DNA of 64,000 nt from contig JAUWKS010000003.1 of assembly GCA_030614005.1 (NCBI GenBank), forward strand, positions 1,354 to 65,353, read 5' to 3'. Below are positions 24,206 through 62,441 of the stretch, in pieces. The notes beneath the pieces were generated by a model. That model saw nothing but the letters and a program-made list of their open reading frames with translations. It had not been told where the DNA came from and searched no databases. The DNA is from Candidatus Heimdallarchaeota archaeon. Its GTDB lineage: Archaea; Asgardarchaeota; Heimdallarchaeia; JABLTI01. Position 1 is the stretch's first letter, and each line of letters begins with the position of its first letter. Both the position numbers and the translations under genes were made by a program.

Positions 24206-26887
24206 TTAATCTTCAGGGGGTATTGAATCCTCTTCAGCTTGCGAAGTTTCTTCTAAAGCTTTTTGTGCTTTAGCTATATTATCTTCTTTATTATCTTCTT
24301 CCTTAGAAAATTCCATTTCACGTTCAACTAAAACATCTAGAATTTTAAGTGAAAGCGTTTGGCAATGATCAATAATTCGTTCTGCTTCTAAAGTATCAAC
24401 ATAGAGTTGTTCCTCAGAGCCTTTGATTAATGGAAGAATAATTGAATTCCAAATCCCTTTGGCTTCTGTGAAGAGTATTTGCGCATCAGTAGCAAATTCA
24501 GTTAATCCTTCTCGAGATGCTGTATCTAAGGTATGAGGAGTCATTTTTTTGTTTAATAAATCCTCTAATTCTTTTTCATACCCTAATAAAATAGTGATAG
24601 TCTTTTTCATTTCTTCTTTCTTTTGATCAATGACTGAAGGAGCTACTTCTTCTCTCTTCTTTGGAAGGTCAATTGTTAGCTCTTGAACTGGTTCCTCTGG
24701 TACCTCCGTTGGAATATCTGCTGCAAGCTCTGTTTCAGAAATAACCAATGTATCAGCATCCTCTTGACTTGATCTCATTGTCTCGTCAAATCGTTTCTTT
24801 GCTGCTACTTCGATATTATCTCGTTCAGTTTTCTCCCAGGACATTTTGCGACCTTTAGCCTCTTCACCAGCAAACAATTCTGATTCTTGTCGTTCTAATT
24901 CTTTTTTATGTGAAGACTTCTTAGGTCTGAACTGTCTAGCAACTAGAAATGAGAACGTTAAGAATAATGCAATTGTTGCTACGCAGATTATTACTATGAA
25001 CATAATTTGAGCGTAATCAATGGGTTCAGCGACGCTTGGGGGGAAAGACTCTGGATCTAAAGGATCAGTACCATAATTTACTTCAATACCATCATTAAAA
25101 CCATCCCCGTCGGTATCTGGATTTGTAGGGTCGGTCCAAATACGTGATTCAAAATCAGTTGTGAGACCATCCCCGTCTAGATCTAAATCAACGTTATCAG
25201 CAACAAGTGGATTTAACCCAAACTTAACTTCATACCCATCAGAGAGAGTGTCTCCATCCGAATCAAAATTAAGTGGATCAGTTTGATAATCATTAACTTC
25301 TTCTCCATCTAATAGAAAGTCACCATCTGTATCTGCTAGATGAGGATCCGTTCCTTCTTGATATTCTTCAAGATTTGTTAACCCATCTTCATCAGCATCA
25401 ACAGAAGCATCTGTGCTATTTGTTGGATTAAGATTTTCTAAGATTTCATAATCATCAGGCATACCATCGGAGTCTGTATCACTTAGCAGTGGATTTGTTC
25501 CGTAGATTAAAATTTCATTTCCATCTGAGATGGTATCTCCGTCTGTATCACTTAGTAGTGGATTAGTTCCATAAATTGCTTCATCTAAATCAGAAAGTCC
25601 GTCTCCGTCCGTATCGATGGAACCATAGACAATATATGCTTCTGTTGTAAGTTGGTATCGTTCTACATAGGCAATGTAATAACTACCAAACTTATCAATT
25701 GTGATTGATGGATCATGAGCGATACTAGAGGATGAGCTTATTCTTTTTTCTAAACCCCAATTATTAGCAGCATTTTTCTGTTTAAGATAGACTAGTGAAT
25801 CTCCGGAAATATCTGATTCAAATACAACAATACTATTACCTTTTTGATCTACAGCAATTCCGAAATCACTATCATCAACTGCATAGGAATGAATGGATGT
25901 TGGTGAAGACCAAGCACCTGCTGCAGCTTTTGCTTGAGCAGTAATGTAATAGATATTGTTGGTTGTTCCATTATCTCTGAAAATAACTTCGATATTTTTA
26001 CTATAATTGTTAAAGGCAATTACGGGGTCAATAGGCGAGTAAGCGACATTAGTGATTTTCTCTTCAGACGTCCAAACTGATCCGTTCTCTGAGTAGCAAT
26101 AATATAATTCTTGCTCACTTGCTCTGCTATCTGACCAGATTAAATGAAGCGTATCGTTGTTATCAACCGTTAAACCGAGCTGTGTTCCAGCAGCAATTTC
26201 TGCTCCGTTAGTAATTCGGATAATTGGTGTATCCCAAAGACCTGTTGTAGCATTATATTTTGTATAATAAAGATCTCCTAGAGCATTATCAGTTGTGTCT
26301 CTCCATACTAAATGTACCAAACCAACACTATCAGTTATTGTCATTGGATTTTCAGCATCACCACTGTTTGCTGTTAGACTAGTTTTTGCTCCAATAGTAA
26401 AATCATCTTCAACAATTCTTTCTTGCAACTCAAAATCATCCAGAGGAGCTTCATCCTCCTCAAACACAAAATGAATGGATCCGTTAAAATCTGGAGTAGG
26501 ATTGTAGCCACTTGGTAGTGCAGCTAACACAGTATCAATTACTAATGGATCTGACCAAGAACTGCTACTATTACCAATAGAGAAATAGATAGTACTTACT
26601 GGGCTTGTATCTGGATTGATAATATCGATCCATGAAACTCCTACCATTCCTGTTAAAGGACTATAGCTTACTCGAGAATGAGATGAATTTGTTCCTGTAT
26701 TAGAAATTCTTTCACCATCAGTAACAATGACTGCATTTGGATTGTATGTGACTGCTAATGGTTCTTCAAAATCTAAAGGACTAACTCCAATAGTATTTGG
26801 TGATTCATCAAACCCCTGAATAGCAATTGGTAGTACTAAACAAATAAACAAAACAAAAATAAAGGTAAGATAAGTTAACCTTTTCAT
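24206..26887 (-). CDS. Type-I membrane surface protein with an Asp-box-like beta-propeller, TSP3 calcium-binding repeats, one TM helix and a cytoplasmic helical tail of about 270 aa
   Basis: ATG at 26887 gives the signal peptide MKRLTYLTFIFVLFICLVLPIAIQG. Repeated ...LHLIW.D / ...W[ST]... blades, e.g. YYCYSENGSVWTSEE. Many DTDGDGLSD / DSDGDTLSDGYE (DxDxDGxxDxxE) repeats. TM IMFIVIICVATIALFLTFSFLV followed by RQFRPKK and a long charged tail. Confidence 0.6.
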   Translation of the reverse strand: MKRLTYLTFIFVLFICLVLPIAIQGFDESPNTIGVSPLDFEEPLAVTYNPNAVIVTDGERISNTGTNSSHSRVSYSPLTGMVGVSWIDIINPDTSPVSTIYFSIGNSSSSWSDPLVIDTVLAALPSGYNPTPDFNGSIHFVFEEDEAPLDDFELQERIVEDDFTIGAKTSLTANSGDAENPMTITDSVGLVHLVWRDTTDNALGDLYYTKYNATTGLWDTPIIRITNGAEIAAGTQLGLTVDNNDTLHLIWSDSRASEQELYYCYSENGSVWTSEEKITNVAYSPIDPVIAFNNYSKNIEVIFRDNGTTNNIYYITAQAKAAAGAWSSPTSIHSYAVDDSDFGIAVDQKGNSIVVFESDISGDSLVYLKQKNAANNWGLEKRISSSSSIAHDPSITIDKFGSYYIAYVERYQLTTEAYIVYGSIDTDGDGLSDLDEAIYGTNPLLSDTDGDTISDGNEILIYGTNPLLSDTDSDGMPDDYEILENLNPTNSTDASVDADEDGLTNLEEYQEGTDPHLADTDGDFLLDGEEVNDYQTDPLNFDSDGDTLSDGYEVKFGLNPLVADNVDLDLDGDGLTTDFESRIWTDPTNPDTDGDGFNDGIEVNYGTDPLDPESFPPSVAEPIDYAQIMFIVIICVATIALFLTFSFLVARQFRPKKSSHKKELERQESELFAGEEAKGRKMSWEKTERDNIEVAAKKRFDETMRSSQEDADTLVISETELAADIPTEVPEEPVQELTIDLPKKREEVAPSVIDQKKEEMKKTITILLGYEKELEDLLNKKMTPHTLDTASREGLTEFATDAQILFTEAKGIWNSIILPLIKGSEEQLYVDTLEAERIIDHCQTLSLKILDVLVEREMEFSKEEDNKEDNIAKAQKALEETSQAEEDSIPPED

Positions 26888-27153
26888 TCCAGCTAAAGTA
26901 ATTTTTGATGACACTTTTCAGACTTCCTACTCAGTTTAGTATTTAGACTATGGGAAAAAAAAGCTTTTTATAGTGAACATTAGAGGTAAAATGATAAGAT
27001 ATCAGTTTAGTAGCTAATTGATAGTGCAAAGCTATTTTCATTCCTAGTTAATTTAAAGAACGGAGTATAGGAAAACTTCTTAAAACAATTTCAAGGGTTG
27101 GAGAAATAGTTAATAAACACTTTGTTGTGCAAATAGAAAATAAGGTGCAAATA

Positions 27154-36996: not shown

Positions 36997-39900
36997 ATGC
37001 AATTGATGCACAAAAATAGGTACCCCCCGCAATTAGTATTAATTGGCAGTTTATTCATATTTTTAATGTTATTCAATTCAGCTGTAAATGCTATCGAAGT
37101 GGAAGTTGGCAGTGAGGTAGGAATGACAGCAATACCGCCACAAATGGGTGGGGACTCTTTTGAGACACAAGCAACGAAAATCAATGGTTATGATTGGGAA
37201 GATGAGGAGGTTTTTGAAACATTTGCTCCGCTAAATGATTTGAAAATAGCTCTTGATGGCGATGAAAACGTTCATGTGTTTTGGTCTGGTGTAGAAAATG
37301 GTGATTATTATCTATTCCATAAAATTAGATACAAAGTAAATGAAACTTGGAGTGAAAGAGAAAGTTTAGGTACAACCTCTTCTGAAACTGGTGCAGTATT
37401 AGATGTCCAGACAGATGATGCCGGTATAATCCATCTTACCTGGCAACAAAATTCAATAGTAAGATACAGACGTTACAATTATGGTATTTGGGAAAATCCA
37501 CAGGTTGTCAGTAGTGGTATACATCCAACTATTGATATTAGTACAACAAACGGTGCTCCAAATGTAATTTACAAAAGAAAAGTGGATAGTAGGTATATAG
37601 ATTATAATTATTATTTTACTGAATATAATACTTCTACTGAAATTTGGAATGCAGAACAAATCGCTATGGGTGACTATTCTCCAAATGGAGGGTCATCTTA
37701 TGCTTATTCACTTGTAAAAGATGGAGAATTTGACAAACCGTATATTTTTACAAGCTTTCTAGATAGCTATTGGTATTGGGATGATTCATCAGGTTATTGG
37801 GTTAGAAAAGTAGTTGATACAATCAACTATAAAATACTGAGTCGAGATAGCGAGACTTCAACTTTCTCTAATGATGGATTTGATATTGAAAGTGCAATAA
37901 GCGTTACTGTGCCAGTAGTAACAAAACCACTGCTAATCAATAGTCCATCTGATGGGTTATTTGCTTTTTATAATAAACCAAAAGATGATGGAACTTATGA
38001 GATTACCTATGCTAAAAAAGCTGGCTCTTACTGGAGCAATCCAATAACACTATCTGATAAAGCTGCTCTGAAGTGTGAAATGACCGCAGTAGTGGATCAA
38101 TTTGGAAAAATAACCCTTATTTGGAATTATGTACACCAAACAATGATAGAAGGACAACTAAGATCGTCCGCTGAATTATATATGAAAACATTTTCTCCAT
38201 ACACACAAACATGGTCAGATGATTTACCATTAAATACTATAGAAATGTATACTCACTTTCCATCAATGACTCAAGATACAGATGGTAATTTGTACTTGGT
38301 ATACATCGATATAAATATCACTGATTCATCAGAGAAGAAATTAATTTTTAGAAAAGGTTGGACAGATTCGGATGAAGATGGGTTAACAAATAATGTGGAA
38401 ACAGAGATACATGGAACTGACCCTTATGACCCCGATTGCGATGATGATCAAATGCTGGATGGAGAAGAAATAGCATTAGGTTTTGATCCTTTTAACCCCG
38501 ATGAAGATTCCGATGGAATGGCAGATGGGTATGAAGTGCACAATGATTTAGATCCTTATAGTGACGATTCCTTGGGTGATTATGACTCAGATAACTTGAC
38601 AAATATGGAAGAATTCTTAGCTGACACATTTGCTAATGATAACGATACTGACGATGACGAAGTGAGTGATTATAACGAGTTAAAGGTGTATTTCAGTAAC
38701 CCGAAAAACCCTGATTCAGACGAAGATGGATTAAGCGATGGAATAGAAATAAACATTGTTGGTTCTAATCCAAATTCTAATGATACTGACAATGATACTA
38801 TGTTAGATTATTATGAGTGGACTAATGAGTTGAATCTGACTCTAAATGATACTTTTGAAGATTTTGACGGAGATGGATTGTATAATATTTATGAATTCTT
38901 ATACAATATTAAGGCGAATAAAGCAGATACCGAGGGGGATGGTTTGGGTGATTATGAAGAAGTAATGATTTATTTCACTATACCAAATAAATTCGATACG
39001 GATGACGATGGACTTTGGGATGGTATTGAAGTATACACCTATGGGACAAACCCATTATTACCGGATACAGATAGTGACTTTTTGTTAGATAAAACAGAAA
39101 TTGATGCCGGTTTAAATCCCGTCGATAACGACACAGATAATGATTTAATGCTAGATGGTTATGAATATATTTTTGGTCTTGATTACTTTGATGATTCAGA
39201 TGCAAATTTGGATTATGATGGTGATACTCTTACAAATCTAGAAGAATCTTATTTATGGACAAATCCATTTGATGATGATTCTGATGGCGATAAAATAGTT
39301 GACAATTATGAGCTTGAATTAGGTAGTGATCCTGCAAAATATGATACCGACGACGACGGTTTAAACGATTATAATGAGATATTTGTAATTGGTTCTGATT
39401 TTGATAATAATGATACCGATAGCGATGGTTTGATAGATGGCGATGAAGTATTTATTTATCAATCAAATCCACTCATTGTTGATTCCGATGGTGACACTCT
39501 CGATGATGGTGATGAAGTATATATTTATCACACAAATCCTGCTTCTACAGACACCGATGGTGATCTTCTTGCTGATAATTTAGAGTTAGATAACAATTCA
39601 AATCCACTGGTCGTTGATACTGATTTAGATGGTATGGATGATTATTTTGAATGGCTCTATGGACTTGATCCCACAGAAGATGATTCACTAATTGATACCG
39701 ACCAAGATGGTGTGCCAAACTTCGAAGAGTATCTTCATAATACTAATCCTTTGGTTAATGATACAGATCTGGATGGCTTAACTGATTTCGATGAAATTTA
39801 TGTTTATTATACTGCTCCTGATTCCAACGATACCGATGAAGACTCTCTTGCAGACTACGATGAAATAATGGTTTATGGAACATCCCCTCATGATCCAGAC

Positions 39901-40260
39901 AGCGATGACGATGGCATTTTAGATGGAGAAGAAGTTAGGATTGGTACTGATCCCACAGAAATTGATTCTGATAAGGATGGTGTTTCCGATGGTCAAGAGC
40001 TTTTAGATGGAACAGATCCCACTGACTTCTATGACAACAAAGATATCAGACGCTCGCGCTTACTGATCGTCACCTTTTCTGTTATTGTTGGAGGCATTCT
40101 TGTGTATTATATTGGTCCCTTCCTTATCATAAAATTATCACGTAATGAAGAAACTAAATGGGTTCAAGAAGGACTTTTATGGCGAAAACGGAAAGGAACT
40201 GAAATCCTCGAAACGTCACCTCATTCTGAAGAAATTTCGGAATCGAATATGGAAGAATAA
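36997..40260 (+). CDS. Large type-I membrane surface protein with an Asp-box-like beta-propeller, about 25 TSP3 calcium-binding repeats, a C-terminal TM helix and a short cytoplasmic tail
   Basis: Signal peptide ([20 protein letters not shown]); W-containing blade motifs ([30 protein letters not shown]); TSP3 repeats from about residue 455 to 1010 ([36 protein letters not shown]...); [26 protein letters not shown]; tail of about 45 aa. Confidence 0.6.
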
Positions 40261-47092: not shown

Positions 47093-49150
47093 CTATTGTT
47101 TTCTTCTTTTTATTGAAACCGTTGCAACCAAAATTATTGCAAAAATGCTGGTAACGAAAACATATCCAGGAATAAATCCTGAAGCACTTGTTGGAGGTAT
47201 TGTAATATATACTTCACCCGGATTTGGTGTATCTGTTATGAAATCTACAGAACAATCATCTGTGTCGTGATTTGCTGGGTCTCTTTGTAGGGTCAAAGAT
47301 TCATCCATATCACCTGTCCAAGCAGTTATCGATGGAAGACTTCCAGTACCCCAAACAACTGCATCTACCGATGAGGTTGTAGGCGTATCTAATTTCAGAT
47401 AATCACCTGTATTTGCAAGAGTAATGGAACCATAGGTGAAATCTGCTGGGTATGTATAAGCTCCAAGAGCAGTCATTTGTTCTGTGAATGCAGTGGCATT
47501 TCGAGCAAATATCAAAATGTCTCCTGCTGTAAACTCTGTTCCTGCTGGTATAACATAGGTTGCTCCATTATCTGAAACTTCCCATCCTCCAATACCAACA
47601 TCGAAAGAGAACCCATTATACAACTCGAAGAACTCTCCTTCCGGTTCAGGTGTATCTGCATCAAATCTGACTTCAGAAAAGAGTAACAACCATTCAACAC
47701 TATTTATGAGATTAACATCAATTTCATACTCAATAGTAGATAGATCAGATTTCGTACCCACTAGTTTCAATGTATATAATCCATCAGCATAAATTGAAGA
47801 ATCTAAATTATAGGTAACAACTGCAGAAGGATTCGTCCAAGTATTAGCTAATGTATCTCCAACGAATAATTCACCTTTAATGTAAGTATCAATATAGAAT
47901 CCGGCATCTATAACATAAGTTCCTTCAATAACTTCATGCTCTTCTATGTCAATAATTTCCACTACGCCAGTATATCCTGTAGGAACTTCACTATTTGCCC
48001 AGTCCCAATCAAAGACTGTTTTGAAATATGATGCAACATTGGTGTTTTTAACAATCGCGCCTGCTTCTCGATTATTCACTACGGAATTGTTAGACCAATT
48101 AATACTCGAGACTGCAGTAACTTCTCCATCAGCACTAACATATTTGTTATGATTATGACCGAGTCCTTTGAAGAATCGTATCTCAATATCATTTGACAAC
48201 AGAACTTCTGTAACATTCGCATTAGGCGTTCCCGGTTCTGGTATCAATACTCTAACATCAACTCCTCTATTTGCTGCAGCAATAATATCATCTAATAAAT
48301 AACAATCAAACTTAATGTATTGCTGTGAAATATCAAGTGTTGTTGTTGCATTATCTATGAGTGAAGATAATAACTGATAGCTATTATCGGGTGCGAATAT
48401 TGGTGTGACTTCCATATATTCATTTATAACTTCAGGAGTGTCAAATGGATGAGTGTATGTTCCTCCTGTTTCATTTCCTTGTAATAAACCAAGATGAGGT
48501 TCAGTACCTGCATACAGATTGCCAATACCTTGGTCATCGAAGAAAACATTTTCATAAAACGCCGCTATGCTTGCATCTTCAAATGCAAATCCTAATTCCC
48601 TATTGGTTCTTGCATAGTTTACTTGTGGAATACTCGAAGGAGCCCAGTTCCCTGAATAAACAAAGGTTTCAAGACCATCCACAATCCAGAATTTAGCATG
48701 AGTAAAGGTAAAACTAGAACTACACCAAGTAACTATTACTCCAGCAGCATCAAGTCGAAAAGCAGCTTCTTCTGTGTAATCATCTTCGTACCCACTAACC
48801 CGATCATGGGATAATGAAACTTGAACATCTACACCTCTATCTTGAGCAGCAATTAATCGATTGACTAATGGTTCACTCGAGAGTGTATAAACTTCGAGAT
48901 AGAATGACGTTACTGAATCATTTAATGCTTTCATAATCACTTCATAAGCTGAATCCGGCCCGACGAAACAAGTGACCTTGCTCACTCCCGTGAACGTTTG
49001 GGTAGGAATTGCATCGGGGTTTACCCATGGTTCAGAAATATTTATTGGATCTTTCGCAACAACAACTGTTACAGATGGGTTGAGTACCATTAACACTGTA
49101 GGCAGCATTAGCATAGTTGCTACAAAAATCACTAGTCTATTTATTTTCAT
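47093..49150 (-). CDS. Secreted phospholipase-D-superfamily protein (two HKD motifs) with a C-terminal lamin-tail domain and a PGF-CTERM-like membrane anchor
   Basis: Signal peptide MKINRLVIFVATMLMLPTVLMVL; HKD motifs THAKFWIVDG...GNWAPSS and HNHNKYVSADG...SINWSNNS; lamin-tail-domain signature EFFELYNGFSFDVGIGGWEVSD; C-terminus ...IPGYVFVTSIFAIILVATVSIKRRKQ preceded by a Thr/Pro/Ser linker. Confidence 0.6.
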   Translation of the reverse strand: MKINRLVIFVATMLMLPTVLMVLNPSVTVVVAKDPINISEPWVNPDAIPTQTFTGVSKVTCFVGPDSAYEVIMKALNDSVTSFYLEVYTLSSEPLVNRLIAAQDRGVDVQVSLSHDRVSGYEDDYTEEAAFRLDAAGVIVTWCSSSFTFTHAKFWIVDGLETFVYSGNWAPSSIPQVNYARTNRELGFAFEDASIAAFYENVFFDDQGIGNLYAGTEPHLGLLQGNETGGTYTHPFDTPEVINEYMEVTPIFAPDNSYQLLSSLIDNATTTLDISQQYIKFDCYLLDDIIAAANRGVDVRVLIPEPGTPNANVTEVLLSNDIEIRFFKGLGHNHNKYVSADGEVTAVSSINWSNNSVVNNREAGAIVKNTNVASYFKTVFDWDWANSEVPTGYTGVVEIIDIEEHEVIEGTYVIDAGFYIDTYIKGELFVGDTLANTWTNPSAVVTYNLDSSIYADGLYTLKLVGTKSDLSTIEYEIDVNLINSVEWLLLFSEVRFDADTPEPEGEFFELYNGFSFDVGIGGWEVSDNGATYVIPAGTEFTAGDILIFARNATAFTEQMTALGAYTYPADFTYGSITLANTGDYLKLDTPTTSSVDAVVWGTGSLPSITAWTGDMDESLTLQRDPANHDTDDCSVDFITDTPNPGEVYITIPPTSASGFIPGYVFVTSIFAIILVATVSIKRRKQ

Positions 49151-51373: not shown

Positions 51374-52609
51374 ATGTTACCTAGAAAAAATTTGTTGGAG
51401 AGTAAAAGTGTGCCAAAAAGAGATGTTATTACAGAAAAAGTATTCACTATAAGAAAACCTAGTTTCTCTAAACTTCTCTCTCCAACTATAACTGCTGCTG
51501 AGAAAGAAATAAATGACCATCTAAAACGTAATGACATTGAATCAACAGCAGACCCTCGTAATGAGGGAGACATTTTAGTTGTTTTCATACATGGTTTTGC
51601 TGCTTCTAAATATTGCTGGCTTGATCCTGATGTTGGCAATATGGGTTGGGTTAAGGATTACGAAAATACCCCACCTATTCGAGATTTTGGTTGGCACACT
51701 ATCCCTCCACCTCCCTTTGTGCCTATTGATTGGACATTATCAAATCAAATAATCATTAATGGTGCATCAACAGAAATGGATAAGGCTGGAGTTGAGTGGT
51801 TAACATACTCCCAAGGTTCAGCTTTTGGTGATATTGAAAATTCTGTAGATGAATTAAAAAATATTATGCGTGAAATAAGAATTATCTACGGTCATAGAAG
51901 AATCATAATTATCGCTCATTCACGAGGTGGACTGATCTCAAAAAGATATCTTGATACAGTTCAAGATACTGACGTGGAGAAACTTATTACGTTTGGAACA
52001 CCGTTTGGTGGGACATTTATGTCTTCAATAGAGACATTTCGAAAACCTTCGAAACATTTCTTGAATAGATTTAAAACAGCAAGAAAATTGTGGGATGTCA
52101 GCCAAGAGCGTCGTGTCGAATCTGTTGCAACAAAACAAATGGCACCAAACTCGGAATTTCTCACGCAATTACATAATAGTGGTTGCAGAAATGATGTCAA
52201 ATATGTTAATGTCGCAGGATCAAATTCGCACTACACAAATGTGTATTCTTGGAGATGGGCAACATCCTCTTGGAAAAGAAATTTTCGACTAGCTAGAAGA
52301 AAGAAAAAGGAACGAAAAAAACTGAAAGCAAATAATCACCCTCCAATAGATTGGTGGAATCTCCCAAATTATCCATTTATCAATGCCCACAATTGGATTA
52401 TGGAACCTGTCAAATTATTTGAAATTTATCCTAAAATAGGTTATCCTGAAGTAATGCAAGGTGATGGTGCTGTTTCAATTATAAGTGCTCTTTCTGATCT
52501 TCCGGAAGTTAAGCATTATGTTATACATAAAAATCATATAGATATGACTTGTTGTATTGATGGGTATGAAATAATGCATAAAGAATTGGAATTAAGCATG
52601 GAAGATTAA
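51374..52609 (+). CDS. Alpha/beta-hydrolase-fold lipase/esterase-like protein
   Basis: Nucleophile elbow IIAHSRGGL (G-x-S-x-G variant AHSRG); VVFIHGFAASKY oxyanion region; C-terminal Asp/His candidates; basic insert RRKKKERKKLK. Confidence 0.55.
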   Translation: MLPRKNLLESKSVPKRDVITEKVFTIRKPSFSKLLSPTITAAEKEINDHLKRNDIESTADPRNEGDILVVFIHGFAASKYCWLDPDVGNMGWVKDYENTPPIRDFGWHTIPPPPFVPIDWTLSNQIIINGASTEMDKAGVEWLTYSQGSAFGDIENSVDELKNIMREIRIIYGHRRIIIIAHSRGGLISKRYLDTVQDTDVEKLITFGTPFGGTFMSSIETFRKPSKHFLNRFKTARKLWDVSQERRVESVATKQMAPNSEFLTQLHNSGCRNDVKYVNVAGSNSHYTNVYSWRWATSSWKRNFRLARRKKKERKKLKANNHPPIDWWNLPNYPFINAHNWIMEPVKLFEIYPKIGYPEVMQGDGAVSIISALSDLPEVKHYVIHKNHIDMTCCIDGYEIMHKELELSMED

Positions 52610-52651
52610 TGCTTACAAATTTACTATAGTGGTTGTTTAATTTTGCATGAA

Positions 52652-53662
52652 ATGAAAATTACCCAAACTAATCAAAAAAATAAGGTCAAAATCAAGCGAG
52701 TGTTTTTTTGGCGACTGTTTTGGTTTGCAAAACTAAACATTAAAATTCATAAAAAGGATCCCATATTTCGTAAAGCACAAGTCAATTTTTCTGCAAGGCT
52801 AAAGTTCTTTTTGAGTTTTAGTTGGAAAATCTTCCTCCAAACGCGTTTCATATTATTAGAAAATGGTCATGTTGCTGGCACGCTTTCTTTAGATGTTAAA
52901 CCTAATTCAGTTTTTGTTTATGCCGTTGGTTTATTGGAAGAATATCGACGTAAAGGATATGGTAGTATACTTATGAAATTTACAGAAGATTTTGCTAAAA
53001 AACGAAAAATAGATTTTGTCAATTTTTCTGTTCTGTTGGATAACGAAGCTGCAATAGGTATGTACAACAAATTAGGTTATGAATCTCAAGGAATAGGTTT
53101 AACGTTAATTAGATATATTAAAGAGAAATTGGTGGAAATAAATACAGATGAAATAATTGATGAATTTGGTGAGATAACTTTTAGAAGAATGATACATAGC
53201 AAAGAAATTAAGTCAAAGTCGATTTATTGGTGGAGTGAGGAAATTGAAGCGTTTGCTGGTCAGAAAGCAAAAGAGAATAGTATTCAAACAGGTCTTTTAG
53301 ACTTTGATTTCAGAAACGAATGGAAAATATTTGAGATACTAACAAATAATAAGGAATCTGGAATTGTTGCAATTCTTCCCTCAGGCATTTTTTTAACTTT
53401 AGTCTTTTTTTCAGACCCAAAGAATACTTGGTCAGTAAATTGGACTAAATTATTTATACATACAATTGTAAATGAAAAACTTGGCAAGCCCTTAATAAAA
53501 AATCTCACTGCCACTTCAAGTTCAATATCATTGAATACTACTCCCCTTATTCAGGTATTTCTAACAAACCAACACAAAGATGCCCTCGCAGAGGCGAATA
53601 AATCACTCTTCATCCATGATCCAGATGAGGATCGACAAATCTTTTTCAAAAAGCTGGATTAA
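52652..53662 (+). CDS. GNAT-family N-acetyltransferase with a C-terminal domain of about 170 aa of unknown function
   Basis: Acetyl-CoA-binding region RRKGYGSILMKF...AIGMYNKLGYESQG; ATG at 52652. Confidence 0.5.
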   Translation: MKITQTNQKNKVKIKRVFFWRLFWFAKLNIKIHKKDPIFRKAQVNFSARLKFFLSFSWKIFLQTRFILLENGHVAGTLSLDVKPNSVFVYAVGLLEEYRRKGYGSILMKFTEDFAKKRKIDFVNFSVLLDNEAAIGMYNKLGYESQGIGLTLIRYIKEKLVEINTDEIIDEFGEITFRRMIHSKEIKSKSIYWWSEEIEAFAGQKAKENSIQTGLLDFDFRNEWKIFEILTNNKESGIVAILPSGIFLTLVFFSDPKNTWSVNWTKLFIHTIVNEKLGKPLIKNLTATSSSISLNTTPLIQVFLTNQHKDALAEANKSLFIHDPDEDRQIFFKKLD

Positions 53663-54433: not shown

Positions 54434-55417
54434 CTACATAGTTAGTGAGGAGCAATTAACAATCCATTCATTATCATGGTCATAAGATTTTATATCTTCG
54501 CTAAATTTTATCATTCGTAATAAAGATGATCTGATATGAAACCCATAATTCAGAAGGTATTCATATACCAACCAATAACTTGAGTTAACACTCAATCTTA
54601 ATTCTGTTTTCCCATGTTTTTGTCCAAAATCTTCACAACAAAGAAGAAGAACATCTAATACTTGTTTATTTTTTTCATCTTTATCAATAACAAGTATTTT
54701 TACCATTAATGTGGGATTATCTTTCTCTCCTTGTCTATTAGATACTAACCGGCAATTCGCAAATGCTATAATGAATCCATCTTTCTTGAGTAAAATGGTT
54801 TCACCTTGGTTGTATTTTTCTGTAACAACAATTTTAGAAGTATAATCTAACCCGTTCTCGGTTTTGCTTGATAACCACCTACATCTTGTAAGGGCATCTT
54901 CCTGTTGAGGTTCCTCGGAAAAATATTGTATTTCAATGCTATCTTTTTCGAGTAATTTATTTAATTCTATTTGTTTTTTAGAAGTGAAATCAATCTGCTT
55001 TTTTAATGACATCGTTTGAAAAGCCGGTTTGAAGCCTAATTTACTAAATAAACCAATATTTGTTGCACTTGAAGTCATTGTTTCTAAACTTAATTTAGTG
55101 ACATTCTTTTCAACATCGAGGTATTTTATAGCACCTACCATTAATTCTTTTCCTACTCCTTTATTTTGATAATCTGGATGCACACCAAATGTACCTATCC
55201 ATCCAAATTTACCCCAAACATGCGCAAAGATTGCTCCGACAACTTTTCTTTTATCTATAGCAACTAAACATCCATTTGGGTCTAATTCCATATAAGGAAT
55301 AATATATTCAGGAGCTCTGTACCTTTTCACAGCATCTTTTCCTCTTCTTTGAATATTCCAAACTTGAAAAGCTTCAGCTAGTACATCGATAACCTCTGGT
55401 AGATGCTTTTTTGTCAT
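54434..55417 (-). CDS. GNAT-family acetyltransferase (tandem GNAT-like halves)
   Basis: VGAIFAHVWGKFGWIGTFGVHPDYQNKGVGKELM; ATG at 55417 preferred over the TTG at 55432. Confidence 0.55.
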   Translation of the reverse strand: MTKKHLPEVIDVLAEAFQVWNIQRRGKDAVKRYRAPEYIIPYMELDPNGCLVAIDKRKVVGAIFAHVWGKFGWIGTFGVHPDYQNKGVGKELMVGAIKYLDVEKNVTKLSLETMTSSATNIGLFSKLGFKPAFQTMSLKKQIDFTSKKQIELNKLLEKDSIEIQYFSEEPQQEDALTRCRWLSSKTENGLDYTSKIVVTEKYNQGETILLKKDGFIIAFANCRLVSNRQGEKDNPTLMVKILVIDKDEKNKQVLDVLLLCCEDFGQKHGKTELRLSVNSSYWLVYEYLLNYGFHIRSSLLRMIKFSEDIKSYDHDNEWIVNCSSLTM

Positions 55418-55499
55418 CTTTGTAATTTTCAATAGATAGTCACTTCTTTTTTTTCAAACAGTTCATTGTATTTTTCTTCTAATGAACAATATCAGCTTT

Positions 55500-57463: not shown

Positions 57464-57898
57464 ATGAAAGAAATGTTTGACCAACTAGATAAAGAAATAA
57501 TTGATCTATTAAGAGACGATTCAAGAATTACAAATATTCAAATTGCTAAAAAAATTAAGAGAAGCGAATCAACTGTTAGGCAAAGAGTAAATAAATTAGT
57601 AGAGAAAGGAATAATAAAAAAATTCTCTATTATGGTAGATCCAATTGCTTTAGGTTTCAATACCATTGCATTTATCGGAATTAATACTCATCCTAGTCGT
57701 TTACTTAAAGCAATAAAAGCATTGAAAAAAATAGATGAAATAATCTTCATTTCCACAACCACAGGTGATTATATGATTCTTTGTCAAATCTGGGCAGAGG
57801 ATGGAGTTCATTTATCTGAAGTAGTTGATAAAATAGAAGAAATCGATGGTGTTCTAGAAGTTTTACCATCAATAATCCAAGAACGGCATAAAGAGTAG
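57464..57898 (+). CDS. Lrp/AsnC-family transcriptional regulator
   Basis: N-terminal HTH (LDKEIIDLLRDDSRITNIQIAKKIKRSESTVRQRVNKLVEKGIIK) plus a C-terminal RAM domain; 144 aa. Confidence 0.75.
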   Translation: MKEMFDQLDKEIIDLLRDDSRITNIQIAKKIKRSESTVRQRVNKLVEKGIIKKFSIMVDPIALGFNTIAFIGINTHPSRLLKAIKALKKIDEIIFISTTTGDYMILCQIWAEDGVHLSEVVDKIEEIDGVLEVLPSIIQERHKE

Positions 57899-57922: not shown

Positions 57923-58873
57923 CTATTTGTCTTTAATGTAATCCAATGGATAATGCTTTTCGATTAAATTTTTTATATTCACTTCAGTATGATTGTTAAC
58001 GGATCTTACCATTTTATCAAGTAAGCTTTTGACTATTTGAACTGCTCGTGCTGCAGGATCCATTTCACCAACAAATATGCCAATGACATTTTTCTTCTCC
58101 TTTATGAGAACTAATTGTTTATTATCTACTTGAAGGAGAGATTCTGCAGTCTCAAATCCAGCCATCTGTTTAATAAATTTGATTATCTCATAGCGACCTT
58201 TTTTGAACAATGGAACATTTTTAGCTTGTGTCTTTGGTTTTCCAAAGAGAGTTGTTTCTACTTCCATTCCTTCACTTTTGAAGAAATAGTAACCATGGAT
58301 TTTAACAATGTTCTTAGGAATATCTTCGTCTTTACATAATTCCAATGTTAACCAATCCCAAGATTCGAAGAGCATTGCACCTGTTAATGCTGAGCATCTG
58401 GTAAAATTGTATTTTCTTTGCAAACGTACTAGTTCACCGAAATCAATTATATTTAATATCTCATCTGTAGAAGCAGCATCTTCAAGATCTATTTTATTTG
58501 AAATAAATAAAATAGGTGCTGTCTTATTAAAAGAGAGAGCTCTATTAAATTCCTCCGAAGCTAATTCAAATCTGCCCTTATCTGCAGAATCTAAAACAAA
58601 GACAAGTCCATCTGCGCTTGTAATAAATTTCTCCCATAAGGATTCTCTCAAAGGAGTTTGTCCCCCTAAGTCGTACACTATAAATTCCAAAGATCGGTAT
58701 TTGTATACTTCAATATTAACTCCGAAAGTAGGTCGAGTAAGAGTAAATTCTGATCTTAGTATTCTTTTAACAATTGTTGTTTTTCCTGCACCATCTAAAC
58801 CAACGATAGCAACTGATTTCTTTTCAGCATTTCCTTCTTCTTTTGCTTTAGTTAATCTTCTAAATAAAGACAT
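57923..58873 (-). CDS. Arf/Sar-family small GTPase fused to a C-terminal alpha/beta domain of about 130 aa (roadblock/longin-like?)
   Basis: N-terminal amphipathic helix (MSLFRRLTKAKEEG), G1 GLDGAGKTT, G2 T in ...LTRPTFGVN, G3 YDLGGQ, G4 NKID, G5 CSAL. The G domain ends near residue 185; residues 190-316 (...KIHGYYFFKSEGMEV...NVIGIFVGEMDPAARAVQIVKSLLDKM...) form an extra domain. Confidence 0.7.
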   Translation of the reverse strand: MSLFRRLTKAKEEGNAEKKSVAIVGLDGAGKTTIVKRILRSEFTLTRPTFGVNIEVYKYRSLEFIVYDLGGQTPLRESLWEKFITSADGLVFVLDSADKGRFELASEEFNRALSFNKTAPILFISNKIDLEDAASTDEILNIIDFGELVRLQRKYNFTRCSALTGAMLFESWDWLTLELCKDEDIPKNIVKIHGYYFFKSEGMEVETTLFGKPKTQAKNVPLFKKGRYEIIKFIKQMAGFETAESLLQVDNKQLVLIKEKKNVIGIFVGEMDPAARAVQIVKSLLDKMVRSVNNHTEVNIKNLIEKHYPLDYIKDK

Positions 58874-59125: not shown

Positions 59126-60052
59126 ATGAGTCAAGATTATATTATTGAAGTTAGAAATTTAGTTAAAAAGTATGGCTCAGTAGAAGCACTTTCAGAAATA
59201 TCATTTAAAATAAGTAAAGGACAAATTTTTTCTCTTCTAGGTTCAGATAGTTCTGGAAAAACTTCATTAATAGAAATTTTAGTAGGTCTGCGAAAACCAA
59301 CTTCCGGAGAAGCCTTTGTTTTAGGTTTTAATATTAATAGTAAAACAGAGATGCGTGAGATTAAGAAAAGAATCGGCGTATTACCACAAGAATTCAAAAC
59401 ACATGATAATCTTACTGTGAAAGAAAATATTTTGTTTTGGGGAAAAATGTATGACAAAATGGTTGACCCCATAGAATTAATGAAACTATTGAAACTTGAT
59501 GAAGTAGCAAATGTTCGATATAAAAAACTGTCAAATACATTGAAACAAAAAGTTGGGATAGCTACTACTCTTGTAAGTGATCCTGAGATTATCTTTCTTG
59601 ATCAACCTACTGCTGGTCTTGACTATTATATTAAGAAAGAAATTTGGCAAGTATTGATGGATTTACGTGAACAAGGAAAAACTATCTTTCTAACCTCAAA
59701 TGATGTATTAGAACCACAAGCAATCGCCGATAGAGTTGCAATACTCCATAATGGTATAATAAAAGATATTGGCTCACCCAATGAATTGATTGATAGATAT
59801 AGTAGTGAAAAGAAATTCATTATAAGATGTCCAAACAAGGATATAACTAAGAACGCCTTGAAAGCTTTACAGGAAATCGAAGTTGCAGAAACCGAAACTG
59901 GTGATTTAGTTGTTTCAAGCGATGAGATAACCCTACTAGAATTATTAGAAAAATTAGAGAAATTTAATGTTAAATATTCAGATATAATTACTCAAAGTCC
60001 TTCTTTGAATGATGTCTTTCTAATTTTAACAGGAGAAGAATTACGTAAATAA
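59126..60052 (+). CDS. ABC transporter ATP-binding protein (ABC-2 type)
   Basis: Walker A LLGSDSSGKTS, signature-like LSNTLKQKVG, Walker B IIFLDQPTAGLD, H-loop; C-terminal accessory domain. Confidence 0.75.
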   Translation: MSQDYIIEVRNLVKKYGSVEALSEISFKISKGQIFSLLGSDSSGKTSLIEILVGLRKPTSGEAFVLGFNINSKTEMREIKKRIGVLPQEFKTHDNLTVKENILFWGKMYDKMVDPIELMKLLKLDEVANVRYKKLSNTLKQKVGIATTLVSDPEIIFLDQPTAGLDYYIKKEIWQVLMDLREQGKTIFLTSNDVLEPQAIADRVAILHNGIIKDIGSPNELIDRYSSEKKFIIRCPNKDITKNALKALQEIEVAETETGDLVVSSDEITLLELLEKLEKFNVKYSDIITQSPSLNDVFLILTGEELRK

Positions 60053-60077
60053 GCTAACTGATATTTGGTGATAAAAT

Positions 60078-61265
60078 TTGAGTGAAGATATTGTCCAATC
60101 TGATGAAACACCCCCAAACCAATTCAAATTGTTCATCAGAAAAATAAAAGCCTTTTTCCGTCCAGTTGGAAATAGCTTAAGGAGAATATCAAATCAAATC
60201 GGTGGGCTTAGTTTAGGTTTTTTCAGATCACCTGGATTAATTTTTCTCACAATTGTTCTACCAATCATCTTAACATTACTATTTGGAGCACTATTTGGTA
60301 GTACAATAGATACAAATTATCAGTTAGATGTTCTCGATAAAGATCAAAGTGATGCGTCAATACAGTTTACCGATTATTTGGGAAATGACACTGGTTTGAT
60401 GATAGAGGTGCTTGATGAGACAAGTATTAACCCAGTCGAATGGTTGAAAGAGAATACTAAAACTATTTTACTGGTAATACCAATGAATTGGGGCGCATTT
60501 ATTAACGATTCAGATCAAACCGATTTAACAGTTTATTATGATCATTCATCATCATCTGCAAAAACTACTTTGAAAATAATTGAAGAGGCTGTAATAGAAC
60601 TCAATTTTGAAATATTAGCAATAGATAATACTTTGGGCGTAGAAACTGAAAGTCTTTATGTAACTAATTTAGAATTCATTGATTCACTTGTTCCTGGAAT
60701 AATAATGATTTCTGTTTCAACAATTGCTCTGATTACTAGTCTTAGTTATGATATCAACGAAAAACAGAGTGGTATATTACGTAAATTCGTTACAACACCC
60801 GTTTTTAAATTCGAATGGGTGTTTGCAAAGCAATTTTGGCAAATAATTCTAGCATTTCTTGCTAGTACTTTAACAGTCTTATTTGCTTTAATTTTTGATT
60901 TTCAAGTTACAAAATTGCATCCTGCGATGCTAGTAATAATTTTTTATGGATCATTAACATTTTCTGGTATAGCAATGATACTCGTAAGACTAATCTCTAA
61001 TCCAGATGGTGTTATGCTTGCATCTGTATTATTTACTATTCCACAAATTCTACTAAGTGGAGCATTAATTCCAATAGATACTTTTCCAACATTTTTACAA
61101 TATGTCGCTCGGATATTTCCGATATATTATCTAACAGAAGTGATGAGAGCATTAATGCTCGATCCTTCTCAAGGAGTTTTTTGGATTAATTTCTCCATAT
61201 CAACAGTATTGGCAATAGGCTTCTTTACTATGGGTATAATAGTCACAAAATGGAAACAAGATTAA
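60078..61265 (+). CDS. ABC-2 family transporter permease
   Basis: N-terminal TM helix, large extracytoplasmic loop, then five C-terminal TM helices; typical ABC-2 topology; TTG start. Confidence 0.6.
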   Translation: MSEDIVQSDETPPNQFKLFIRKIKAFFRPVGNSLRRISNQIGGLSLGFFRSPGLIFLTIVLPIILTLLFGALFGSTIDTNYQLDVLDKDQSDASIQFTDYLGNDTGLMIEVLDETSINPVEWLKENTKTILLVIPMNWGAFINDSDQTDLTVYYDHSSSSAKTTLKIIEEAVIELNFEILAIDNTLGVETESLYVTNLEFIDSLVPGIIMISVSTIALITSLSYDINEKQSGILRKFVTTPVFKFEWVFAKQFWQIILAFLASTLTVLFALIFDFQVTKLHPAMLVIIFYGSLTFSGIAMILVRLISNPDGVMLASVLFTIPQILLSGALIPIDTFPTFLQYVARIFPIYYLTEVMRALMLDPSQGVFWINFSISTVLAIGFFTMGIIVTKWKQD

Positions 61266-61283
61266 AGCGGTGGTTGAAAACAA

Positions 61284-62441
61284 ATGGTACCTGAATATCT
61301 TCAAAAACTAATCAATTTTTTCACGCACCTCCGAAATAGTTTTAGAAGGATTAGAAACCACATAGGCATTTCTATACGACTGTTTTATCGATCACCTGGA
61401 TCAATTTTCCTTCTGGTAATTTACCCTATGATATTGTTATTGCTATTCGGATCCATTTTTGCAACTGAAGATGCCTTTACATTCCATTTAGAAGTTCAGG
61501 ATAAAGATGGGACTTCATTTTCAGAAGGATTAATCCAGGAATTAGATAATCAAGACATACTTGTTATTCATCGTTTAGATTCAACAATTAATCCCAAAGA
61601 GTATTTGCAAGAGAATAATTTACATTCTTGCTTAGTCATACCTCTAAATTGGACCGATAATAGCATTAATCCTACTATTTCAACCTCAAATGTAACTCTA
61701 ATCATCGATCCAAACTCAAATAAAGCGCACAGAGTTGCTCTTATTGTTTTAAAAACAGTAAAAGATTATTCATTATCTATCAGCGGTGAGGAGCCACCAA
61801 TTGGAATAACTGAAGTAAACTTCTATTCAGATTCTGTCAGTTATATTGATTTCTTTATTCCTGGTATTATTGGCGTTATTATCATGAATACTGGAATATT
61901 GGGTGTTATCAACCGTCAAGTGCATTTCAAAAAATCAGGCTTATTTAGAAAATTGGCTACTACACCAATTACCCGTTGGGAATATGCTACAGCGGAAATT
62001 GGTTGGCAATATTTAATTGCCTTTTTTACAACTCTCTTAGCATTTTTAGTGGCATGGGCAGTCTTTTCGTTTAGTTGGGGTAGTTTTGATGAATTGATAC
62101 CTATAATATTATTTGTGGGAGTGTTGGTATTTTCTGGTATCGGTTTAATAATAAGTCAGCTTGTTCGAAATCCCAATAATGCTTTAGCAGTAGGAACGTT
62201 AGTAACTCTACCTATGCTGTTTTTAAGTGGAATATTTTTTGATATATCTGGTATACAAGCATTGGTCATCATTTCAAAATTCTCTCCCTTAACATATATA
62301 GTAGAAGCATTGCGATCTTCAATGATAAATCGAAACTTTTCATATGCATGGCTAAATATAGGGATAGCATTTGCTATTGGTATAACAGCTTTTGTTGTTG
62401 GCGTATTCCTAACGCAATGGGATGTAGATAAAAAACAATAA
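61284..62441 (+). CDS. ABC-2 family transporter permease (second, paralogous)
   Basis: Same topology and length as the upstream permease; conserved N-terminal ...FRRI.N.IG... region shared with its paralog. Confidence 0.6.
   Translation: MVPEYLQKLINFFTHLRNSFRRIRNHIGISIRLFYRSPGSIFLLVIYPMILLLLFGSIFATEDAFTFHLEVQDKDGTSFSEGLIQELDNQDILVIHRLDSTINPKEYLQENNLHSCLVIPLNWTDNSINPTISTSNVTLIIDPNSNKAHRVALIVLKTVKDYSLSISGEEPPIGITEVNFYSDSVSYIDFFIPGIIGVIIMNTGILGVINRQVHFKKSGLFRKLATTPITRWEYATAEIGWQYLIAFFTTLLAFLVAWAVFSFSWGSFDELIPIILFVGVLVFSGIGLIISQLVRNPNNALAVGTLVTLPMLFLSGIFFDISGIQALVIISKFSPLTYIVEALRSSMINRNFSYAWLNIGIAFAIGITAFVVGVFLTQWDVDKKQ

Follow-up and report, generated by a model that had tools for sequence, protein, structure and literature searches.

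A predicted longin-fold domain at the C-terminus of an Arf-related GTPase family in Heimdallarchaeia

A 64,000-nucleotide stretch of a Candidatus Heimdallarchaeota archaeon contig (JAUWKS010000003.1, positions 1,354 to 65,353; hereafter the window) contains a gene that raises the question of what kind of GTPase carries an Arf-type G domain and a second, C-terminal domain in one polypeptide, and of what such an arrangement might be for. An initial annotation, made from the letters alone, described the product as an Arf/Sar-family GTPase fused to a roadblock/LC7 or longin-like domain, likened it to Rag/Gtr GTPases, and called an Arf-type carrier of such a domain unusual. We identify it as an ArfR-type GTPase with a predicted C-terminal longin-fold domain, the A-type paralogue within its family (Table 1).

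The two-domain fusion is real and is neither a chance ORF nor an assembly artefact, because a homologue search recovered about 112 full-length homologues (305-341 aa) of the same architecture and both domains are under purifying selection, with dN/dS of 0.07-0.08 in the G domain and 0.15-0.19 in the C-terminal domain. The closest homologue, P0001, is 98% identical, and the fusion is uninterrupted in the ~112 clusters, which represent many independent assemblies, closed chromosomes among them. Conserved neighbours of the window gene are an ABC-2 transporter and the Lrp/AsnC regulator that had already been recognised as convergent to it. A scan of the window for tRNA genes found none.

Table 1 Features of the ArfR-longin gene, its product and its convergent neighbour; coordinates are positions in the window and residue numbers refer to the 316-aa protein.
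Feature	Coordinates	Strand	Basis
Complete CDS, 316 aa plus TAG stop, ATG start	57923..58873	-	ORF list and sequence
Short cationic amphipathic segment, residues 2-14, SLFRRLTKAKEEG	58832..58870	-	Predicted helix 3-14, low pLDDT
Arf-family G domain, residues 17-180	58334..58825	-	Pfam Arf
G1/P-loop GLDGAGKTT, residues 25-33, Arf-specific Leu-Asp at positions 2-3	58775..58801	-	Sequence; invariant in family alignment
G2/switch I Thr49, within PTFGVNIE	58727..58729	-	Thr in 56/56 aligned sequences
G3 DLGGQ, residues 68-72, third-position Gly (Arf-type) and catalytic Gln72	58658..58672	-	Sequence
G4 NKID, residues 126-129, guanine specificity	58487..58498	-	N126, K127 and D129 invariant
G5 SAL, residues 161-163	58385..58393	-	S161 and A162 invariant
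Interdomain linker, residues 181-192	58298..58333	-	No regular secondary structure; pLDDT ~84 in full-length model
Longin-fold domain (predicted), residues 193-312	57938..58297	-	DSSP on both predicted models
D272-P-A-A-R276, start of second helix of longin-fold domain	58046..58060	-	D in 54/56, R in 55/56
P309-L-D311, (Y/F/W)PLD motif near C-terminus	57941..57949	-	P309 and D311 invariant in 56 sequences
Lrp/AsnC gene, convergent neighbour	57464..57898	+	Pfam HTH_24 and AsnC_trans_reg

All of the Arf hallmarks initially listed (GLDGAGKTT, DLGGQ, NKID and SAL) can be read in the sequence, and the window protein matches Pfam Arf (PF00025) with 132.4 bits against a cut-off of 22.3, ahead of Roc (43), SRPRB (38.5) and Ras (35.5); Pfam returned no match to Gtr1_RagA (PF04670). 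Both G-box features described as Arf-specific, the Leu-Asp of GLDxxGKT and the third-position Gly of DxGG (PMC11914678), are found here together with NKxD and SA. In the family alignment, position 72 of G3 is Gln in 42 and His in 14 of the 56 sequences. Since GLDxxGKT and DxGGQ also occur in some Asgard RagGtr sequences of a partially accessible reference set, G-box residues alone do not discriminate between these lineages. The top PDB sequence matches of the G domain were HodArfR1 (8oul, 3e-29) and Arf1, and phmmer gave 104 bits with HodArfR1, 97 with human Arf1, 55 with Sar1, 12 with RagA and 6.5 with HRas. Against labelled Asgard references, drawn from the accessible part of Table S3 of Vargova et al., the scores were 27-38 bits for ArfL and 10-33 for RagGtr. 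Pairwise comparison likewise placed the G domain nearest to eukaryotic Arf1 and to the crystallised ArfRs of Asgard archaea, with ArfL, Rag/Gtr and MglA more distant, so that the grouping with MglA-type GTPases that had been held to count against an Arf assignment did not emerge. Arf1, Arl and Sar1 also outranked SR-beta as matches of the G domain. The interswitch spacing, 19 residues from Thr49 to Asp68, equals its Arf1 counterpart, Thr48 to Asp67. From the G2 Thr across the interswitch and G3 there are no gaps relative to HodArfR1 or PfArf1, the exceptions in the alignment being a one-residue insertion in HodArfR1 just before G2 and a one-residue gap in PfArf1 in switch II. Lastly, HUT81661.1 (P0021), a family member with 61% identity, was entered as ArfR in Table S1 of Vargova et al. 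Judged by sequence, the G domain is an Arf-related (ArfR) small GTPase whose nucleotide-binding and catalytic motifs are all intact.

The N-terminal amphipathic helix of the initial annotation survives in part: a conserved amphipathic segment is present, but it is short and weakly hydrophobic, and its helix is predicted with low confidence. For MSLFRRLTKAK the hydrophobic moment is 0.56 against a shuffle mean of 0.37 (4.8% of shuffles reach 0.56) and against 0.70-0.74 for Arf1/HodArfR1, with a mean hydrophobicity of ~0.04. S2 and the hydrophobic pattern are kept across the family, and three of its residues (L3, F4, L7) align with F3, F4 and L7 of the N-terminal helix of HodArfR1, a helix that buries its hydrophobic side when GDP is bound.

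The region after the G domain, which had been read as an extra domain, is conserved and is predicted to fold as a compact alpha/beta unit rather than as a disordered or plain helical extension. Residues ~186-316 reached a pLDDT of 89.8 when modelled alone and >90 within the full-length model, which has an overall pLDDT of 85 and a whole-chain pTM of 0.83. DSSP assigns strands at 194-199 and 204-209, a helix at 213-236, strands at 242-249, 252-259 and 262-269, and helices at 274-293 and 300-307. The resulting order in both models, bb-a-bbb-a-a, was roughly approximated by the beta-alpha-beta-beta-alpha pattern first sketched, and it agrees with the published definition of a longin, a five-stranded sheet in just this order that lacks an N-terminal helix and ends in two helices (PMC10933270, Fig. 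7). It differs from the roadblock/LC7 order a-bb-a-bbb(-a), which opens with a helix, so that of the two folds originally offered the longin stands and the roadblock does not. In structural comparison the domain matches true longin domains best, those of SNAREs and adaptors ahead of SRX. At the sequence level, 24 sequences of the domain gave no relevant Pfam match at E<=10, its profile found nothing relevant among all PDB sequences, and an NCBIfam search with the whole protein returned nothing meaningful for this region; the best sequence match, Csx28 (E 0.06), was judged to be chance. Longin membership is accordingly assigned at the level of fold only, and at that level the models identify a compact longin-fold domain.

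A survey for the same fusion, proposed at the outset, yielded the ~112 homologues described above, and a profile of the C-terminal domain matched 17 among 1.84 billion cluster representatives, 11 of them ~290-336 aa long with the domain at the C-terminus and six short (76-185 aa; two that were looked up sit on contigs of 689 and 2,092 bp). Across these representatives the domain family is confined to Heimdallarchaeia, in the orders Gerd-, Heimdall- and Hodarchaeales, and to positions C-terminal to an Arf-type G domain. Extra paralogues form a same-strand tandem pair, B then C, in 9/9 Gerdarchaeales-type genomes; the B member has DLGGH at G3 and the C member is degenerate there (DIGNE/DLGKD), and other relatives with degenerate G motifs have also retained the C-terminal domain. 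Pairing of an active with a degenerate GTPase characterises Rag and other dimeric GTPases, and by analogy the tandem pair with its one degenerate-G3 partner hints at a Rag-like pairing. In MK-D1, a Rag-like operon pair has been modelled as joined through roadblock domains (PMC10933270). Synteny holds inside each paralogue group, and the only neighbours common to groups A, B and H are generic AAA ATPases. Putative longin-like proteins with a GP motif are encoded near family genes, namely F24 in Gerdarchaeales, in which 'TGP' is invariant after the first strand, and the Folliculin-like F4 in Hodarchaeales; for F24 as a longin, Pfam and PDB profile searches gave no match and an HHalign comparison with the Folliculin-like F4 was likewise negative. 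Elsewhere in the window we found neither further family copies nor F24/F4/F5-like genes.

Compared with characterised systems, the protein is closest to the Asgard ArfR/AArf GTPases (HodArfR1, GerdArfR1; PDB 8OUK, 8OUL, 8OUM, 8OUN; Vargova et al. 2024/2025; Zhu et al. 2025), which have a G domain of the same type and provide its best sequence and structure matches, with shared Arf-specific G1 and G3, an Arf1-like P-loop-to-switch II spacing and a related N-terminal amphipathic segment. Whereas ArfRs characterised so far consist of a single domain of ~180 aa, the window protein adds a C-terminal domain of ~130 aa, predicted to be a longin fold; in the ArfR studies of Vargova et al. and Zhu et al. 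an additional C-terminal domain was trimmed or set aside. The N-terminal-longin GTPases of Asgard archaea (PMC11914678, PMC10933270; for example P0118) also join an Arf-annotated G domain covalently to a longin, but their longin is N-terminal and so leaves no free N-terminal amphipathic helix, their domain belongs to a separate sequence family, and GLSKAGKTT and DAPGQ stand in the G domain of P0118 where the window protein has GLDGAGKTT and DLGGQ. Eukaryotic longins (Sec22b, VAMP7, Ykt6; AP sigma, mu-N; COPI zeta/delta; TRAPP sedlin/synbindin) are 5-14% identical to the C-terminal domain and, unlike it, stand as polypeptides of their own or belong to SNAREs and coats, not to a chain with an Arf G domain. 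Asgard GTPase fusions to longin or roadblock domains have been reported in general terms (PMC10933270) and an N-terminal longin on Arf-like proteins has been mentioned (PMC11914678), and in the accessible literature we found no description of this C-terminal domain family. The proteins are thus a conserved variant of the known ArfR family, one member of which has been published as ArfR, with a seemingly undescribed C-terminal domain family; the term unusual has to be qualified accordingly.

As for function, the protein is probably, on balance, an Arf switch that associates with membranes and carries a longin platform of its own through which it would dimerise or bind partners. The G domain would act as an Arf-type GTP/GDP switch, and GTP binding would shift the interswitch and free the N-terminal helix for membrane association, as has been shown experimentally for the single-domain HodArfR1 and GerdArfR1. 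The membrane switch is proposed on the strength of an N-terminal segment that the family conserves and that can be aligned with the helix of HodArfR1; its shortness, its lower hydrophobicity than in Arf1/HodArfR1 and its low model confidence argue the other way. The longin domain would form an in-chain protein-protein platform held in a fixed orientation against the G domain, and the packing between the two is probably fixed given the whole-chain pTM and the well-ordered linker. This platform would most likely mediate homo- or heterodimerisation and/or dock a partner, whether regulator or effector, and we propose it because of the tandem B/C pairs and the degenerate-G relatives that keep the C-terminal domain. 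With the platform in the same chain, the nucleotide state would be read out through the longin module in cis. Against the switch and platform reading as a whole, the gene in the window occurs singly, and none of its neighbours is GTPase-related. Many eukaryotic trafficking complexes use the longin fold to dock small GTPases, and eukaryotic Arf-family GTPases engage separate longin subunits, namely SRX of SR-alpha, adaptor sigma/mu, COPI zeta/delta and C9orf72-SMCR8. The longin platform would be functionally analogous to these subunits and to the roadblock domain of Rag/Gtr.

Conserved residues of the C-terminal domain bear on a different and unlikely, though still serious, reading in which the longin domain is a cis regulator on the protein's own switch/interswitch face, as an autoinhibitory lid or a GAP- or GEF-like element that responds to nucleotide state. 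SNARE longin domains (Ykt6, VAMP7) fold back onto their own SNARE motifs, the pTM and ordered linker suggest a defined intramolecular interface, and Arg276 and Asp272 are almost invariant. Many longin domains are, moreover, parts of GEFs and GAPs, and GAP longins of the FLCN/SMCR8/NPRL2 type carry a GP motif in the beta1-beta2 loop beside an arginine finger (PMC12290439). In the window protein that loop is S-E-G-M-E and across the family it is variable and lacks GP; the family 'GKP' comes after beta2 and is missing from the H-type. With no GP in the loop, a FLCN-type GAP longin was rejected; the conserved Arg276 lies at the start of helix 2. Furthermore, the G domain has its own catalytic Gln72, and the switch regions have pLDDT of 51-71 in the model, unlike what would be expected beneath a tightly docked lid. 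The (Y/F/W)PLD motif forms a beta-bridge in both predicted models and is kept in divergent relatives, P0130, P0133 and P0135 among them; P0141 stops short of it, and it is missing from the C-type paralogue.

Membrane traffic in eukaryotes is built on both Arf-family GTPases and longin-domain proteins, whose functional coupling is believed to have arisen before eukaryotes did. An improbable joint reading would have an ancestral Arf-longin partnership kept in one chain here and later split in eukaryotes, with a longin, either the protein's own or that of a dimer partner, on the ArfR switch face, B and C as a Rag-like active/degenerate heterodimer, and F24 and the Folliculin-like F4 as their GAPs. 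The split pairs would be SR-beta with SRX, Arf with adaptor/COPI small subunits, and Arf with C9orf72-SMCR8. If true, this would name the Asgard GTPase targets of GP-motif longins.

That the protein belongs to the Rag/Gtr lineage, with a C-terminal roadblock, obligate dimers on a Ragulator-like scaffold and a role in nutrient signalling, is very improbable. The resemblance noted initially holds as an architectural analogy, as RagA/C, Gtr1/2 and the Asgard G-plus-roadblock proteins LokiRagO (8YL2) and LokiRagM (9M28) are built to a like plan, in which an alpha/beta domain from the longin/roadblock superfold, ~130 aa in length, comes after the G domain, and adjacent paralogue pairs occur in some genomes of both groups. 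It ends there: the G domain is Arf and not Rag, with no PF04670 match and the RagA and RagGtr scores given above (the latter for the accessible part of Table S3) far below the 104 bits of ArfR, and the C-terminal domain has the longin order and no sequence match to its counterparts. Alignment with LokiRagO/M is limited to ~181 residues at 15% identity. Rag-like classification was thus rejected on G-domain scores, C-terminal topology and the failure of the whole chains to superpose.

We regard as similarly remote a fused SR-beta/SRX-like module, an archaeal counterpart or precursor of the SRP receptor pair. SR-beta with the SRX of SR-alpha (PDB 1NRJ, 2FH5) also combines an Arf-family GTPase with a longin-like domain, both appear among the structural matches, and B-type paralogues carry DLGGH, whose His is also found in Sar1 and SR-beta. 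Vargova et al. also place hodarchaeal ArfR sequences with SR-beta, OLS22796.1 being one said to branch there. In SR-beta/SRX, however, the two domains are on two chains, SR-beta has a transmembrane anchor that the window protein lacks, and both matches are weaker, the G domain being closer to Arf1, Arl and Sar1 and the C-terminal domain to SNARE/adaptor longins. FtsY, SRP54 and Sec genes were linked to the family at none of the examined loci. Finally, the ~112 clusters of the same architecture, with both domains under purifying selection, refute two further readings, a gene in decay and two neighbouring genes joined through a fault in sequencing or assembly.

Returning to the switch with a built-in longin platform, a covalent Arf-longin family conserved across Heimdallarchaeia offers a natural, tractable construct for the switch-platform interface. 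This class is reportedly closest to eukaryotes in one recent phylogeny, a placement that another recent study is said to dispute. The B/C tandem supplies candidate heterodimeric pairs, and related genomes encode candidate cognate regulators near family genes; in MK-D1, a lack of gene linkage was an obstacle to pairing Asgard GTPases with GAPs and GEFs (PMC10933270). Family members carry inconsistent annotations, and the assignment made here corrects those labelled 'GTPase Der', '50S ribosome-binding GTPase' or 'hypothetical protein'.

The open reading frame proposed in the initial annotation lies at exactly 57923-58873 on the reverse strand, running from ATG through 316 codons to TAG, and the Arf hallmarks claimed for it (GLDGAGKTT, DLGGQ, NKID and SAL) can all be read in its product. 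Because stop codons are frequent at the G+C content of the window (~30-38%), an ORF of 951 nt is improbable by chance. Public data hold one counterpart at 98% identity and ~112 full-length homologues of 305-341 aa. Using two orthologues without saturation at synonymous sites, we found that dN/dS came to 0.07-0.08 for the G domain and to 0.15-0.19 for the C-terminal one. The gene and its fusion are real, and selection acts on both domains.

Pfam assigned residues 16-176 to Arf (PF00025) at 132 bits, with Roc, SRPRB and Ras far lower and no match to Gtr1_RagA. When all PDB sequences were searched with phmmer, the top match was HodArfR1 (8oul, 3e-29), followed by Plasmodium Arf1, and 60 of the 60 matches listed were Arf, Arl or ArfR. 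As GLDxxGKT and DxGGQ also occur in some Asgard RagGtr proteins, we scored the window protein directly against labelled references from the accessible part of Table S3 of Vargova et al.; HodArfR1 reached 104 bits and human Arf1 97, compared to 27-38 for ArfL, 10-33 for Asgard RagGtr and 12 for RagA. The family member HUT81661.1 (P0021), 61% identical to the window protein, is entered as 'ArfR' by Vargova et al., with its MAG reassigned to Gerdarchaeales. Thr49 and Asp68 are 19 residues apart, as in Arf1, and the PDB alignments are gap-free from the G2 Thr to G3. Judged from its sequence, the best scores to Arf/ArfR, the listing of HUT81661.1 and the Arf1 spacing together identify the G domain as an ArfR/Arf-type switch with an intact catalytic Gln72. 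At this position, His replaces Gln (DLGGH) in 14 of the 56 members of the family alignment; those with His are the B-type paralogues plus some proteins of the A-type (P0023, P0027). Eukaryotic Sar1 and SR-beta also have His at the matching position.

Coordinates of G motifs in the window protein and of neighbouring genes in the window and in related loci
Feature	Source	Position	Strand	Remark
G1 GLDGAGKTT	window protein	residues 25-33	(-)	read in protein sequence
G2 Thr49, within PTFGVNIE	window protein	residue 49	(-)	read in protein sequence
G3 DLGGQ	window protein	residues 68-72	(-)	read in protein sequence
G4 NKID	window protein	residues 126-129	(-)	read in protein sequence
G5 SAL	window protein	residues 161-163	(-)	read in protein sequence
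ABC ATPase and two ABC-2 permeases	window	59126-62441	(+)	start 252 bp upstream of GTPase
B, C, F24, Ras-family GTPase	locus L022	8001-8963, 9100-10065, 10237-11040, ~11100-11713		all on same strand
B, C, F24, Ras-family GTPase	locus L018	8001-8960, 9110-10075, 10169-10972, 11138-11659		all on same strand
433-aa protein	locus L034	2121-3422		
461-aa protein	locus L034	3444-4829		
H-type gene	locus L034	7995-8930		

The N-terminus has a short amphipathic segment of cationic character, residues 2-11 (SLFRRLTKAK), with a hydrophobic moment of 0.56 against a shuffle mean of 0.37, a value reached by 4.8% of shuffles. Its L3, F4 and L7 align with F3, F4 and L7 of the HodArfR1 N-terminal helix, which are buried in the GDP structure. 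The amphipathic pattern is kept across the family and is stronger in a Hodarchaeales paralogue (SSILRRIFKGK, moment 0.71). The corresponding segments of Arf1 and HodArfR1 are, however, more hydrophobic, and AlphaFold2 confidence is low here; membrane binding by this segment is plausible.

The AlphaFold2 model of the full-length protein, built from the 56-sequence alignment, had a mean pLDDT of 85 and a pTM of 0.83, with pLDDT >90 across most of residues 190-300; modelled alone, the C-terminal domain reached 89.8. The predicted elements (strands 194-199 and 204-209, helix 213-236, strands 242-249, 252-259 and 262-269, helices 274-293 and 300-307) make the modelled domain a longin by element-order definition (PMC10933270). 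Neither Pfam nor a profile search of PDB sequences recognised it, and its own profile matched only 17 proteins among 1.84 billion cluster representatives. In eleven of these, about 290-336 aa long, the domain is C-terminal; the remaining six have lengths of 76-185 aa, and the two that were checked come from contigs of 689 and 2,092 bp. The domain has been found only in the Arf-type fusion. Its conserved positions include Q253, L254, K258, G265, D272 and R276, and P309-x-D311 near the C-terminus is invariant in the family alignment. The GP motif in the beta1-beta2 loop that marks FLCN/SMCR8/NPRL2-type GAP longins (PMC12290439) is absent from it.

When one genome of each species was scanned, full-length copies were found only in the Asgard class Heimdallarchaeia, several carrier assemblies being mislabelled (Bathyarchaeia, Thorarchaeota). 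Each of nine Gerdarchaeales-type genomes has three paralogues, A, B and C. A-type proteins are 54-82% identical to the window protein in these genomes and 83% in locus L004; within the window, the A-type copy is the only family member. B-type proteins are 40-44% identical and have DLGGH in place of DLGGQ. The C-type (~21% identical) still matches Pfam Arf (6e-15) and keeps an intact P-loop, with a degenerate G3 (DIGNE/DLGKD) and without the PLD tail; it lies directly downstream of the B-type on the same strand. Gene order was B, C, F24 (a 267-aa neighbour) and a Ras-family GTPase in nine of nine loci (L015-L023), with WDLGGH in B, a C protein of ~321 aa with G3 IDLGxx, and a Pfam Ras match of 5e-33. 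This cluster looks like a GTPase module, possibly built around an active/degenerate heterodimer. In Hodarchaeales there is an H-type (33-37% identical) alongside other divergent copies, and in Heimdallarchaeaceae a form of 336 aa (OLS32853.1 of AB_125), which bears the annotation 'GTPase Der'. A further group has kept the C-terminal domain and lost the G3 and G4 consensus (e.g. WDLKDH). Among 'Heimdallarchaeota' MAGs, P0130, P0133, P0135 and P0141 retain the domain with degenerate G motifs (e.g. GLPNVNFMT or WDLKDH; NKxD lost) and are candidate pseudo-GTPases; the first three keep the PLD tail, and P0141 stops short of it.

We propose that the G domain would cycle like HodArfR1 and GerdArfR1, for which membrane binding through their N-terminal helix as well as an interswitch toggle of the Arf kind have been demonstrated. 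The whole-chain pTM and the ordered linker suggest that the longin domain would pack on the G domain in a fixed orientation. We further propose that it would provide, in cis, a platform on which the protein could dimerise or a partner could dock. Dimerisation is suggested indirectly by the strictly conserved B/C tandem with its one G3-degenerate partner, by the degenerate G motifs of further relatives and, by analogy, by Rag heterodimers and the Rag-like operon pair of MK-D1, modelled as a dimer via roadblock domains (PMC10933270). The main alternative, that the longin domain regulates in cis as an autoinhibitory lid or a GAP-/GEF-like element, appears less likely given the missing GP motif and the low confidence at which the switch regions are modelled. 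A reading along SR-beta/SRX lines is conceivable, with weak support. Its authors note a specific grouping of eukaryotic SR-beta with one hodarchaeal ArfR and, in a separate remark, with OLS22796.1 (Fig. S4 legend, supplement of 10.1101/2024.02.28.582541); SRX, the partner domain of SR-beta, is longin-like, and these sequences would be of interest here should they belong to this family. A Rag-type identity was rejected on the absent Gtr1_RagA match and the 12 bits to RagA against 104 to HodArfR1.

As initially annotated, a convergent Lrp/AsnC regulator adjoins the gene (57464-57898, forward strand), 24 bp past the GTPase stop codon, and it recurs beside the A-type gene in 13 of 14 loci. In 12-13 of the 14, the A-type gene is also flanked by a divergently oriented ABC ATPase together with two ABC-2 permeases, and Ham1 and GNAT genes lie nearby. 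This synteny is limited to one clade, with no obvious sign of a functional link to the GTPase, and the A, B and H groups share no neighbours except generic AAA ATPases. An 'LLGIVFVTFEDTGP' motif is invariant at the N-terminus of F24, its GP coming directly after the first predicted strand, where GAP longins of the FLCN/SMCR8/NPRL2 type have theirs (PMC12290439). F24 matched no Pfam family or PDB profile, and HHalign against F4, the Folliculin-like neighbour in Hodarchaeales, was negative; F24 as a putative GAP-type longin is only a lead. In 19 of 22 Hodarchaeales loci (L003, L024-L044), the H-type gene is preceded, ~4.5 kb upstream and in the same orientation, by the gene for a 433-aa protein with an 'EEHGP' motif and a Pfam Folliculin N-terminal (longin) match of 24.7 bits (threshold 23.3), which is followed by a 461-aa protein of unknown family. 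The two are possibly an FLCN/FNIP-like pair near an ArfR, although the synteny may reflect mere relatedness.

ArfR/AArf GTPases are already established (10.1101/2024.02.28.582541; PMC11914678), Asgard GTPase-longin/roadblock fusions are known in general terms from MK-D1 (PMC10933270), and an N-terminal longin on Arf-like proteins has been mentioned (PMC11914678); Zhu et al. trimmed terminal extensions ahead of structural classification. The papers open to our search, which do not include the definitive Nature Microbiology article or some of the supplements, contain no description of this family of longin-fold C-terminal domains, of its confinement to Arf-type fusions, of how its paralogues are organised or of its tandem pairs. 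One more Asgard GTPase-longin fusion would not astonish a specialist; even so, an ArfR-longin family spread across Heimdallarchaeia, with heterodimer candidates and neighbours that may be GAP-like, offers concrete and testable ways into the question of how longin platforms came to be coupled to Arf switches.

Elsewhere the window carries ordinary archaeal chromosomal genes, among them those for the PolD small subunit, glycine cleavage P proteins, ADP-forming acetyl-CoA synthetase and ornithine carbamoyltransferase. Two proteins of 902 and 1087 aa (24206-26914, reverse; 36997-40260, forward) contain repeats of the bacterial thrombospondin type-3 kind (TSP3_bac), and one of them also matches the BNR repeat weakly; both are probably secreted or surface-located. 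In a 685-aa protein (47093-49150, reverse), PLD-like domains occur together with a Lamin Tail Domain, and a 535-aa EF-Tu-family translational GTPase (8180-9787, reverse) has all three EF-Tu domains and an N-terminal extension of ~120 residues. A 411-aa alpha/beta hydrolase (51374-52609, forward) has weak matches to the eukaryote-typical palmitoyl-protein thioesterase and PGAP1 families, and in related MAGs its synteny with the A-type gene is conserved. Also kept within the A-type synteny block are two paralogous ~335-aa proteins (52643-53662, forward; 54434-55432, reverse) in each of which a GNAT acetyltransferase domain at the N-terminus is followed by a C-terminal half that is uncharacterised.
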